A DNA stretch of 64,000 nucleotides, from the NCBI RefSeq assembly GCF_050320075.1, contig NZ_CP190021.1; one strand, 5' to 3'. The translations under genes and the position numbers were made by a program. Of this stretch, positions 16,274 to 18,845 are shown piece after piece (position 1 is the first letter of the stretch; each line of letters begins with the position of its first letter). The notes under the pieces are model-generated. The model saw nothing but the letters and a program-made list of their open reading frames with translations, was not told the origin of the DNA and searched no databases. Source of the stretch: Escherichia coli (GTDB taxonomy: Bacteria > Pseudomonadota > Gammaproteobacteria > Enterobacterales > Enterobacteriaceae).

Positions 16274-17482
16274 TCAGAATTCGTTGTCTGTAGCAGGTGT
16301 GCGGGGCAGGATGTCGTCGGTGAGGGACCAGTTGGTCAGGATGCGGCGTTTCCGGTCGCGATCTGGTTGTGGTTCATCCCAGATAAGACCGAGACTGAGC
16401 ATATCCCGCCGTAAGCCTTCCACCGCTTCATCAACACAGGGTTCAGGGCAGGGAAGGCCAAAACGCATGGCTTCGGCCTCTGCACGTGCAACGGCCACCA
16501 CGCCAGCGCCTTCAATAAATCCTTTCGTGGTATTGGCGCGGTGTAATGCATAAAACAGCGTCCTGTCCACGCCTTTCAGCCAAATCCAGTTGGGTGGCGT
16601 AAGCCGCAGGTCATGTGCATACAGCCAGACCAGCCCACTGCGGACGTAGCGATGTTGTTTCAGCCATTGCTGTGCTCCGTTGCTTTTAATCACTCTCTGG
16701 AAAGCTGATTTGGCCAGTGAATAAACAGGGGTACAGAATTTCCCACTGTCCCGTTTGCTTTTAATTCTGCATGAGAGGTTCAGTGTATCCATGAGCTTTA
16801 ATGCTGCCTTACGATCATCCAGGAAATACTGAAGACCAAATATGGCAAAGAGCGCTTTTTCATGTGGTGCCATGTCTTTCCAGGACGTTAAAGGTTTACC
16901 CAACTGGGCCATGAAACATCGTCTTGCAGCTGCAACATCGAGCTGCATATTGGTGATGAGAGTATGCTGCTCGACAAATGCTTCCGGGGTGAGAGCAACC
17001 CGCCGTTCAGGTCGTTTGCCACCATGAAAGAGTTTTTCCGGATCACCATCTGCCAGTACAGGGGCGATAGCAGGGGACAACGAAGCAAAGATGTATGGCA
17101 GGCGGGTAATATCTACTGGTCTGCGGGTGAAACGACTTTGTCCCGGATGTTGATACCACTCCCACAAACACCAGAGTGTCACAGGTAAGAGGTACATCCA
17201 CAGAATACCTATGGTCTGCTCCATGACGTTAACCCACTGGCTATAGCTTATGTTGGCGGCGTTGTTACCGGTCATGGCAAGCAGGTTGTATCGTGGTGCT
17301 GCATAGTTATGAAATGGTCCCCAGTCAACCAGTCCCCATAAGGTATGAAGAATCAGGCAGCTGGCGTAAACCACTTCCGGCAAGAATAACCATATAACGA
17401 ATAGCAGCAGGATAAGAAGGACACCAACAGCGCCCCATATCTGCATAGGATCTTCTGCGACAGGCTGTCGATTGTAAGACAT
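16274..17482 (-). CDS. trbA: TrbA inner-membrane protein (DotM/IcmP-like)
   Basis: 402 aa with N-terminal transmembrane helices; synteny. Confidence 0.75.
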   Translation of the reverse strand: MSYNRQPVAEDPMQIWGAVGVLLILLLFVIWLFLPEVVYASCLILHTLWGLVDWGPFHNYAAPRYNLLAMTGNNAANISYSQWVNVMEQTIGILWMYLLPVTLWCLWEWYQHPGQSRFTRRPVDITRLPYIFASLSPAIAPVLADGDPEKLFHGGKRPERRVALTPEAFVEQHTLITNMQLDVAAARRCFMAQLGKPLTSWKDMAPHEKALFAIFGLQYFLDDRKAALKLMDTLNLSCRIKSKRDSGKFCTPVYSLAKSAFQRVIKSNGAQQWLKQHRYVRSGLVWLYAHDLRLTPPNWIWLKGVDRTLFYALHRANTTKGFIEGAGVVAVARAEAEAMRFGLPCPEPCVDEAVEGLRRDMLSLGLIWDEPQPDRDRKRRILTNWSLTDDILPRTPATDNEF

Positions 17483-17770
17483 GACAAAGTCTCCATTTCT
17501 GGAATTTAAATCAAACGGAAAGGTTAAAAATTTATTTGCAGGCGATAAGAGCTAACCAGAGGAATTAGCCGTGTGATAAAAGGATTGTTGCAGATACGAA
17601 AGTCGTTAGAATAGCTGCGGGCGCTTGAGGCTGTATGCCGAAAGCGTTTTGTGGACGGTATACAGCAGAAAGCCCCTGGAGATTTTTTTATCAATCAACC
17701 AAGGGCTCTACTGTAATGCCTAGACAACATTATAGTAGCCCGATAACCGCCGTAAGGCAATGGAGGGGCT

Positions 17771-17926
17771 ATGATGCCACAGCGAACGTTTTTAATGATG
17801 TTAATCGTCATCTGTGTGACGATTCTGTGTTTTGTCTGGATGGTGAGGGATTCGCTTTGCGGACTCCGGCTCCAGCAGGGAAACACAGTGCTTGTGGCAA
17901 CGTTAGCCTACGAAGTTAAACGTTAA
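17771..17926 (+). CDS. pndA: Hok-family type I toxin PndA (51 aa), absent from the ORF track because it is under 60 aa
   Basis: Translation MMPQRTFLMMLIVICVTILCFVWMVRDSLCGLRLQQGNTVLVATLAYEVKR has the Hok/PndA architecture (transmembrane helix plus conserved Cys); GGAGG RBS; an overlapping upstream frame (17635-17919) fits a mok/pndC-like reading frame. Confidence 0.85.
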   Translation: MMPQRTFLMMLIVICVTILCFVWMVRDSLCGLRLQQGNTVLVATLAYEVKR

Positions 17927-17938
17927 CGGGCAACACGG

Positions 17939-17966
17939 CGGCAGGTTTTCTGCCGCCGCTTTGTTG
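17939..17966 (+). terminator. hairpin at the 3' end of the pnd transcript
   Basis: cggcggcag-gttttc-tgccgccg hairpin followed by cttt. Confidence 0.5.
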
Positions 17967-18402
17967 CGAAGGCTGACCTCATTGCGCCCTTTCTTCTTCA
18001 ATGAAGCGTATCCGGTATTGTTTCATTTCCCCTGAAGCCGATTAGCTCCAGCCGAATGCCTTTGCCATCCGGGGCCACGTTCTGCATTTCGCAGATACCA
18101 CGTCGGGTCATGAGTGTGAAGGCTGTCATTGCCAGCATGGCTAACGCATTTTCCTCGCTTCCGCTGCGTTTCTCGAGAGCATCGGCAATTTATTCTATGC
18201 TCCCCACCTGAAAGCAAGAGTCGAATTCTTTACTCCACTTTTCTGACATCGGATTTTCTCTCTGTATTTATGGGTAGTTATCGAACTGAATGTGCCAGTT
18301 TTTTCAGGAGACGGCAAAGTTGAGATGGTTGGTTCTGATTCAAAGCATGAGTTTCCCCGGTGTGACGGGCATGTCGGGCGGATTTTGAGAAACAACAGAT
18401 GT

Positions 18403-18433
18403 AAAAAAACCGACTGGTGAGGTCGGTTTTTTT
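18403..18433. terminator. bidirectional Rho-independent terminator
   Basis: A-run, hairpin aaccgac-tggtgag-gtcggtt, then T7. Confidence 0.7.
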
Positions 18434-18457
18434 ACTGTTCCGTTACAGAGTGGGTGG

Positions 18458-18489
18458 CTCTGGTCGGAAAAGAACTGTCTATAACTGAC
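18458..18489 (+). repeat. 32-bp direct repeat, copy 1 (ctctggtcggaaaagaactgtctataactgac)
   Basis: Matches 18646-18677 at 31 of 32 positions. Confidence 0.9.
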
Positions 18490-18548
18490 CTGTAGATAGT
18501 ACGTCTGGAATTATATTTCTGCAAGTACTGGATAAGTGTATACTCGGC

Positions 18549-18845
18549 ATGTCAGCTCTGAGGCATGTTCTGTCCGGCATATTGTTCAGCGGGAAGAACA
18601 GGTTACAAGTCCTGGCCAAAACATCAGGTGGTGCTGGTTTTGGTGCTCTGGTCGGAGAAGAACTGTCTATAACTGACACTATAGAAACCGTTGTGACAGG
18701 CAGTGTAAGAGCGAACAACGGGGTTCTTTCTCCAGTGATGGAGAAGCGGATGATTAATCTGTTAATCATCGTTCTCAGGGCAGTAGTTGCCGTTGCAAAC
18801 GCGCTGATTGCTGTTCTGGAACTGATCCGGGAACTTATCGACTGA
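18549..18845 (+). CDS. possible small protein with hydrophobic C-terminal helix (98 aa); uncertain
   Basis: ORF ending in a helix-like INLLIIVLRAVVAVANALIAVLELI; weak RBS; overlaps direct repeat copy 2. Confidence 0.3.
   Translation: MSALRHVLSGILFSGKNRLQVLAKTSGGAGFGALVGEELSITDTIETVVTGSVRANNGVLSPVMEKRMINLLIIVLRAVVAVANALIAVLELIRELID
18646..18677 (+). repeat. 32-bp direct repeat, copy 2
   Basis: Matches 18458-18489 at 31 of 32 positions; 188 bp spacing. Confidence 0.9.

Follow-up and report, generated by a model that had tools for sequence, protein, structure and literature searches.

The closest described relatives of the locus analysed here are the pndBCA modules of IncI1 plasmids (R483, R64 and ColIb-P9 type) and of the IncB plasmid R16, together with hok/sok (parB) of R1 and flm/srnB of F, which have the same architecture and element order. 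The pnd system of R483 has been described as a hok homologue with a tac element, a mok-like frame and an antisense RNA, pndB (PMC3562002, PMC4147584); post-segregational killing by the native locus of this plasmid is cited in PMC4147584 and in bioRxiv 10.1101/2025.08.07.668861. In the same preprint, a drop assay showed PndA of R483 to be toxic, and one study that it cites reported a tagged PndA(R483) construct as non-lytic. The pndBCA genes were present in all 125 of 125 surveyed IncI1 plasmids, with pndB identical in every one, and neutralization of pndBCA led to curing of an IncI1 plasmid (PMC5330492); pnd is said to sit ‘in the conserved transfer locus’ (PMC7602700).

In the 64,000-nucleotide stretch of Escherichia coli DNA analysed here (the window), we identify, with a probability of about 96%, the pndBCA (pnd) post-segregational killing system of a conjugative plasmid of IncI1 type, a type I toxin–antitoxin locus of the hok/sok family comprising pndB, pndC and pndA. 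The locus is already known and publicly annotated, and there is nothing new in the locus itself: it has the same PndA, the same position between trbA and excA, the same pndC frame, antisense region and tac/fbi blocks as the IncI1 and R16 modules, and we found no difference from the pndBCA of IncI1 plasmids. As judged from its letters, the locus is intact in all its elements. Its relevance is for annotation only; a 50-residue toxin gene, a 67-residue coupling frame and an antisense RNA of about 63 nt are readily lost to ORF-length filters, and exact coordinates for pndA, pndC, PndB, tac and fbi complete the annotation of the window. The pnd genes contribute to the persistence of IncI1 resistance plasmids in bacterial populations, and neutralization of pndB has served to cure plasmids of this kind (PMC5330492).

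Setting of the locus and comparison with hok-type loci

Over a region of 541 bp containing the locus, 804 plasmid records show an identity of 99% or more, and the DNA of many IncI1-type plasmids matches at 100%. There are 1945 matching records in all; 1898 of them are conjugative plasmids, from Escherichia, Salmonella, Shigella and Klebsiella. Among 5426 complete E. coli genomes, 1252 contain a related sequence, with 1856 copies located on plasmids and 84 on chromosomes. Some matches to pnd come in two pieces (e.g. H130); we rejected their interpretation as insertions into pnd, as it is the downstream DNA that differs instead. The flanking genes and the toxin start were read against the annotation of a 100% identical record, NZ_CP018625.1, in which a Hok/Gef gene is annotated between trbA and excA. 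On one side lies a 402-residue ORF with a DotM_C domain, at 16274–17482 on the minus strand, which is named trbA in the identical public record; on the other, excA, also on the minus strand in that annotation, lies approximately 2.2 kb downstream of pndA, and the interval from pndA to excA holds four other annotated genes, dqlB included. A preliminary description of this DNA, made from the sequence without database searches, had placed the toxin between these same two genes, and both flanks are as it claimed.

In order to compare the locus with its relatives, seven loci were aligned: the present one, an R1-type hok/sok sequence (confirmed against public records at 100% over 450 nt), three diverged hok-type loci and two pnd variants of IncK/IncB type (L006 and L007). 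All seven have, in the same order, a −10-like hexamer, GGCGCTTGAGG, an AGCCCC box, an ATG, the toxin gene, a GC-rich hairpin and a block complementary to the 5′ end. The IncK/IncB/O variants are 90–92% identical to the present locus; in these, the toxin gene is not preceded by an extra ATG, and fbi has a single base change. Common to pnd and hok/sok are an invariant 5′ GGCGCUUGAGG, the AGCCCC anti-Shine–Dalgarno box, the mok/pndC ATG, the SLC motif of the toxin, the 3′ hairpin and the 5′-complementary block, as well as an antisense promoter between the start of the leader frame and that of the toxin, and Rfam family RF01794 matches both. PndA, however, is only 32% identical to R1 Hok, and the pnd leader is approximately 20 nt shorter than that of R1 hok, with a smaller 5′ hairpin and the toxin ATG at +155 rather than +174. 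The fbi element reads CCUCAUUGCGCCC in pnd and CUGAAGCGCC in hok-type loci, and lies nearer the 3′ hairpin in pnd. Because the antisense sequences of pnd and hok/sok differ, cross-neutralization between the two would not be expected.

Toxin gene pndA and coupling frame pndC

The ORF at 17771–17926 on the plus strand, which translates to MMPQRTFLMMLIVICVTILCFVWMVRDSLCGLRLQQGNTVLVATLAYEVKR, had been put forward in the preliminary description as a Hok/PndA-type toxin of 51 residues with a GGAGG ribosome-binding site. The assignment to this family is upheld. The product matches the Pfam profile PF01848 (HOK_GEF) with 47.4 bits (cut-off 22; E = 1.4e-12) over 40 of the 42 profile positions, a match far beyond chance, and aligns with R1-type Hok at 32% identity over 47 residues (E = 2e-12), with the SLC motif in register. 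By exact-sequence look-up, the 50-residue product is letter for letter ‘Protein PndA’ (UniRef representative PNDA2_ECOLX), and the 50- and 51-residue forms share one cluster, the names in which include ‘Protein PndA’ and ‘protein pndA’. Two NCBIfam models score PndA below their curated cut-offs, namely the HokA equivalog (68.8, cut-off 89) and the Hok subfamily model (44.3, cut-off 73). The gene is called in public annotations; in the identical record, the RefSeq CDS ‘Hok/Gef family protein’ maps to 17774–17926.

The ORF of 51 codons thus exists as described, but its first codon is probably not the start. Initiation at the in-frame ATG at 17771 would yield a product of 51 residues, whereas the second ATG, at 17774, gives a pndA gene at 17774–17926 (plus strand) encoding 50 residues, and we consider the second ATG to be the best-placed conserved start on several grounds. 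In the IncK/IncB variants, the first ATG is replaced by GCG and only the second is kept; the Shine–Dalgarno sequence GGAGG, found at 17762–17766, is spaced 7 nt from the ATG at 17774 and only 4 nt from that at 17771; the consensus AUG of the Rfam family aligns with 17774–17776; and the RefSeq call begins at 17774. These observations make it unlikely that the toxin is instead the 51-residue product of the ATG at 17771, even though this is the first in-frame ATG, a ‘protein pndA’ of 51 residues has been annotated by many submitters, and the ATG of hok shares a column with 17771 in the DNA alignment.

The same description had noted an upstream frame overlapping the toxin gene, of the mok/pndC coupling type. 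Such a frame does exist, with an ATG conserved in the seven loci; its start lies at 17716 rather than at 17635. The ORF at 17716–17919 on the plus strand, preceded by an SD-like AAGGG at 17701–17705, encodes 67 residues in a frame different from that of pndA, which it overlaps, and its stop lies 7 nt before the pndA stop. Its ATG occupies the same alignment column in all seven pnd- and hok-type loci; the equivalent ORF is 67 residues long in the pnd variants, 70–71 in three of the four hok-type loci and 50 in the remaining one (L004). On its position and conservation, this frame is the mok/pndC equivalent. The exact 67-residue product is found in databases as ‘post-segregation killing protein’ or ‘ORF1’. 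It gave no match in Pfam or NCBIfam, a result to be expected if what counts is that the frame is translated and not which peptide it yields (PMC9841398). The longer frame that a mechanical ORF search reports, 94 residues at 17635–17919, also overlaps pndA in another frame; we rejected it as the coupling frame on two grounds: the ATG falls within the 5′ hairpin, and the hok-type loci have CTG at that position.

Predicted mRNA, its folding and the candidate antisense RNA PndB

A putative promoter for the pndC–pndA mRNA lies at 17585–17612 on the plus strand, with a −35 hexamer TTGTTG (17585–17590), a 16-bp spacer and a −10 hexamer TAGAAT (17607–17612), together matching 8 of 12 consensus positions in a relaxed scan. 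The TAGAAT aligns with the TATGAT/TATAAT of the hok-type loci, with the same spacing to the invariant GGCGCTTGAGG. A strict sigma-70 consensus scan of 17480–18100 returned no promoter on either strand, and the promoters proposed here, that of pndB included, therefore rest on relaxed matches of 8–9 of 12 positions together with homology. Transcription would start at approximately 17619/17620, and the full-length mRNA, carrying both pndC and pndA, would run from 17620 to 17995 on the plus strand (approximately 370–376 nt), its 3′ end being approximate. The 5′ end was placed by homology with the 5′ end of hok mRNA, GGCGCUUGAGG, and the 3′ limit by fbi and by conservation with the 90–92%-identical variants, which ends at 17988–17995. 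The 90%-identical IncK/IncB variants start to match at 17606, so that the unit conserved with them extends from the −10 box (17606) through fbi (17988–17995).

The 5′ leader, at 17619–17776 on the plus strand, is structured and matches the Rfam family RF01794 (‘sok’) with 134.2 bits (gathering score 59; E = 7e-32) over the full model, positions 1–157, on the toxin-sense strand, ending at the pndA AUG. The same family matches the toxin-sense strand in the R1-type hok/sok and in five other loci with 89–126 bits. We considered the strand of this ‘sok’ match as a guide to the orientation of the antisense RNA and rejected it, since in the R1-type locus, too, the match falls on the toxin-sense strand; the consensus of the model closes with the toxin AUG, and the match therefore marks the leader only and is silent on antisense orientation.

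Two elements within the leader would bear on pndC translation. The ucb or anti-Shine–Dalgarno box, AGCCCCUGG, lies at 17670–17679 (plus strand) and is predicted to pair with the Shine–Dalgarno region of pndC in the closed fold; in the minimum free energy (MFE) structures of the full-length and truncated mRNA alike, 17671–17678 pairs with 17700–17707, and the AGCCCC within the box is kept in all seven loci. Immediately downstream, a predicted antisense-target hairpin at 17708–17738 (plus strand) carries the pndC AUG (17716–17718) and a 9-nt loop (17719–17727) containing CUAG at 17720–17723. This hairpin has a folding energy of −10.7 kcal/mol (z = −4.16), accounts for 93% of the ensemble and recurs in folds of the whole mRNA. 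The CUAG in its loop we take to be a YUNR-type (U-turn) motif, the kind implicated in fast antisense recognition.

The two ends of the mRNA are predicted to pair with each other. The translational activator element tac, GGCGCUUGAGG, forms the 5′ end of the mRNA at 17620–17630 (plus strand) and is invariant in all seven loci, and the fold-back inhibition element fbi, CCUCAUUGCGCCC, at 17977–17989 (plus strand), is complementary to it; both are named here as in the hok literature (PMC9841398). With each of the three 3′ ends that were folded (17992, 17996 and 18000), the MFE structure pairs 17620–17629 with 17978–17988. The fbi element is the last conserved block in common with the IncK/IncB variants, which read CCUCAAUGCGCC, and the hok-type loci have CUGAAGCGCC at the equivalent position. 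The tac/fbi duplex has an energy of −18.0 kcal/mol, a value equalled in 366 of 2000 dinucleotide shuffles (18%) and in 32 of the 492 other 130-nt tiles of the window (6.5%). As the duplex energy alone is not significant and tac is invariant in the seven loci, which leaves no covariation for tac/fbi within the set, the support for this pairing is positional and comparative rather than statistical.

The MFE structure of the full-length mRNA is closed, with the 5′ end folded on the 3′ end via tac/fbi and the pndC Shine–Dalgarno sequence paired with the anti-Shine–Dalgarno box, an arrangement known for hok (PMC9841398). An alternative stem, pairing 17620–17626 with 17670–17676 (tac with the anti-Shine–Dalgarno box), frees the pndC Shine–Dalgarno sequence. 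Relative to the MFE, the open form is less stable by 5.0 kcal/mol in the truncated RNA and by 7.3 kcal/mol in the full-length RNA. The closed form remains the MFE in nearest-neighbour folding after 3′ truncation as well. In these models, a switch to tac/anti-Shine–Dalgarno pairing appears feasible, although energy alone does not predict it.

Downstream of pndA, a GC-rich 3′ stem-loop (plus strand) has its core at 17936–17958 and an extended form at 17930–17967 (−26.9 kcal/mol, z = −5.75), close to the hairpin at 17939–17966 of the preliminary description; it appeared terminator-like in our scan, and the hok-type loci have a hairpin at the position equivalent to 17936–17958. By analogy to the stem-loop that closes truncated hok mRNA (PMC9841398), 3′–5′ exonucleases are probably blocked at this hairpin, which would be where the processed, active mRNA ends. 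It is probably not the end of the primary mRNA; fbi follows at 17977–17989, and we therefore regard the hairpin as a protective stem rather than as the end of the unit. The alternative, that the hairpin 17936–17958 and the CUUUGUUG after it form an intrinsic terminator at which the mRNA ends, with antisense pairing as the only control and neither fbi control nor 3′ processing, is in our judgement very unlikely. The hairpin plus its tail does score as terminator-like, no canonical terminator is visible past 17989 and, as noted, the energy of the tac/fbi duplex is not in itself significant. However, the T-tract is weak (CTTTGTTG), and the 90–92% conservation with the IncK/IncB variants extends approximately 30–37 nt beyond the hairpin, through the 5′-complementary block, before it ends. 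The MFE structure of the full-length RNA closes the molecule through this same block, the hok-type loci have an equivalent complementary block beyond their hairpin, and tac and 3′-end control elements have been reported for the pnd of R483 (PMC3562002); in addition, a 1995 paper in J Mol Biol, cited in PMC7602700, describes two translational control elements in pnd mRNA.

On the minus strand, the interval 17650–17770, to which the preliminary description had tentatively assigned the antisense gene, contains both promoter-like hexamers (17760–17729) and a candidate antisense RNA (approximately 17724–17661). The putative pndB promoter, at 17729–17760 on the minus strand, has a −35 hexamer TTGCCT (17760–17755), a 17-bp spacer and a −10 hexamer TACTAT (17737–17732); an overlapping alternative at 17756–17729 (minus strand) consists of CTTACG (17756–17751), a 16-bp spacer and TATAAT (17734–17729). 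These candidates match 8 and 9 of 12 positions, respectively, so that a search for −35/−10 elements on this strand succeeds with the relaxed scan and not with the strict one. The hexamers are identical in the IncK/IncB variants and share their alignment columns with TTGCGC-N17-TATCCT in the sok promoter region of the R1-type locus, from which we infer promoter activity for pndB.

The candidate PndB antisense RNA, the putative antitoxin, would extend for approximately 60–65 nt from about 17724 to 17661 on the minus strand, both ends being accurate to a few nt. The predicted 5′ end falls at 17722–17725, approximately 7 nt past the −10 hexamer. The RNA would open with a single-stranded 5′ tail, UCUAGGCAU, whose complement spans the target loop and the pndC AUG, and would continue into a long hairpin that closes with CUUUCUGCUGU near 17661; its fold (−29.8 kcal/mol, z = −5.4 to −6.3) was equalled in none of 200 shuffles. 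Its length fits a pndB target of 63 nt, a figure that we ourselves back-calculated from the overlap percentages given in PMC3562002. The promoter and RNA occupy positions homologous to those of Sok and its promoter in the R1-type locus, and it is this homology with Sok, together with the strong fold, on which the placement of PndB is based.

Proposed mechanism and a neighbouring agrB-like/dqlB module

The steps proposed here for the pnd locus follow by homology from the literature on hok/sok and R483 pnd (PMC4147584, PMC9841398, PMC3562002), to which the window contributes sequence anatomy and predicted folds. The constitutive promoter at 17585–17612 would give a stable mRNA of approximately 375 nt. 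In the full-length form, tac (17620–17630) would be paired with fbi (17977–17989), and the anti-Shine–Dalgarno box (17670–17679) would hold the pndC ribosome-binding site (17701–17705), leaving the closed molecule inert to ribosomes and antisense RNA alike. Slow exonucleolytic trimming from the 3′ end would then strip fbi and halt at the GC-rich hairpin 17936–17958, whereupon the 5′ end may pair with the anti-Shine–Dalgarno box instead, freeing the pndC start and displaying it in the hairpin loop of 17708–17738. While the plasmid is present, the 5′ tail of the short-lived PndB would bind the loop and the pndC AUG, blocking pndC translation and leading to RNase III cleavage; pndA would be translated only through coupling to pndC, so that no toxin would be made while PndB blocks pndC. 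That the antisense transcript is made, is unstable and represses toxin synthesis is taken from the literature (PMC4147584, PMC5330492, PMC7602700 and the papers by Nielsen and Gerdes cited there). When the plasmid is lost, PndB would decay first, and translation of the processed mRNA would yield the 50-residue membrane peptide PndA, which would kill the cell by membrane damage.

It seems to us barely credible that the locus has decayed or fallen silent, or that its main role on this plasmid is other than post-segregational killing (redundancy with agrB/dqlB, for example, or another role in stress or defence). In favour of such a view, deletion of pnd alone left the stability of pESBL unchanged and plasmid-free cells were still killed when pnd was absent (PMC7602700), many hok loci on chromosomes are inactive (bioRxiv 10.1101/2025.08.07.668861) and a second type I module lies 0.5 kb away. 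Against it, all the elements here are intact and 100% identical to those of hundreds of plasmids, the 125 IncI1 plasmids surveyed all had the same pndB and neutralizing pndBCA sufficed for curing (PMC5330492), and the native R483 locus mediates killing (cited in PMC4147584 and in bioRxiv 10.1101/2025.08.07.668861).

A second known type I module, consisting of an agrB-like small RNA (sRNA) and dqlB, lies at 18401–18845, 0.5–0.9 kb downstream of pnd. A match to the AgrB sRNA family was found at 18401–18488 on the minus strand (53.7 bits; gathering score 40), and dqlB, at 18750–18845 on the plus strand, encodes a 31-residue DinQ-like DqlB toxin (NCBIfam NF041473, 67.8 bits; cut-off 35) and is annotated as dqlB in NZ_CP018625.1. 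A 33-nt direct repeat at 18457–18489 and 18645–18677, identical at 32 of 33 positions, makes the agrB-like sRNA complementary to the 5′ UTR of dqlB. For pTF2, an IncI1 plasmid, a LexA box preceding dqlB has been published (PMC12211044); it had no match in the window at up to three mismatches. Validation of the agrB/dqlB system on pOXA-48 and IncX3 plasmids dates from 2025 (PMC12365149, PMC12317039), and dqlB is present on 67% of IncI1 plasmids (PMC12365149).

The two modules, both located between trbA and excA, may be mutually redundant type I addiction systems. In that case, dqlB would be the ‘concealed’ second system behind the pnd-independent killing of plasmid-free cells that was reported for the IncI plasmid pESBL (PMC7602700). 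We offer this reading tentatively, at somewhat less than even odds; the link from dqlB to the second killer of pESBL is our own, and dqlB is a plausible candidate for that role. Our search of the literature found no paper testing the redundancy of pnd and dqlB in an IncI1 plasmid. Like pnd, agrB/dqlB combines a small hydrophobic membrane toxin with an sRNA repressor that acts by antisense pairing, and serves plasmid addiction (PMC12365149, PMC12317039). Unlike pnd, it has a toxin of an unrelated family (NF041473, 31 residues) and no mok-like coupling frame, and its sRNA is encoded approximately 190 bp away, with no true overlap, and pairs through the 33-nt repeat in the 5′ UTR. The presence of two type I addiction modules side by side in the window is worth flagging in its annotation.

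Strand of the RF01794 match

The Rfam family RF01794, entitled 'sok antitoxin', matches the window at 17619-17776 (+), on the same strand as the toxin gene, and it lies toxin-sense also in the R1-type hok/sok comparison locus (L002, 300-476, +) and in five other loci. The consensus of the family ends at the toxin AUG. Because the match is toxin-sense in all these loci and the consensus stops at the toxin start codon, RF01794 models the leader of the hok/pnd mRNA rather than the antisense RNA, and the orienting of Sok or PndB by the strand of an RF01794 match is therefore to be avoided.

A second type I module downstream of pndA

Downstream of pndA, at a distance of 0.5-0.9 kb, there is a second type I toxin-antitoxin module, of the agrB/dqlB type already known (PMC12365149, PMC12317039). 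Its parts are an AgrB-family sRNA at 18401-18488 (-; Rfam RF02891, 53.7 versus 40 bits) and dqlB, a gene for a 31-aa DinQ-like toxin, at 18750-18845 (+; NCBIfam NF041473, 67.8 versus 35 bits). The sRNA owes its complementarity to the dqlB 5' UTR to a 33-nt direct repeat in the DNA (18457-18489 and 18645-18677, the latter on +; 32/33 identical). We suggest that a module of this kind may be the pnd-independent killer described in the IncI plasmid pESBL (PMC7602700).

On another IncI1 plasmid, pTF2, a LexA box, ACCTGTTTGTTCAGCCAGGA, has been described 119 nt upstream of dqlB (PMC12211044). A search for this box, allowing up to three mismatches, gave no match anywhere in the window, including the region upstream of dqlB (18620-18760), and the putative SOS control of the pTF2 gene may not be common to the copy studied here.

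Partial pnd segments and a neighbouring reading frame

In plasmid record CP114004.1, an S. Infantis pESI-like megaplasmid, all that is left of the pnd region beside trbA is roughly its initial 137 nt (601-739 of the locus, L008). The retained part comprises the promoter and 5' leader, at 87% identity; neither an Rfam leader match nor a toxin gene was found at this segment, which looks like a truncated pnd remnant. Among E. coli complete genomes, 84 of the 1940 places matching the pnd unit were on chromosomes rather than plasmids, as in NZ_CM166345.1, where the match is partial (17876-17998); such places may be chromosomal hok relatives or segments of integrated plasmids.

Directly past the fbi element (17977-17989, +), the opposite strand carries a RefSeq-annotated 'hypothetical protein' of 63 aa, WP_174715448.1 (17998-18189, -); in the mechanical ORF list its frame holds only a 46-aa ATG ORF (17998-18138).
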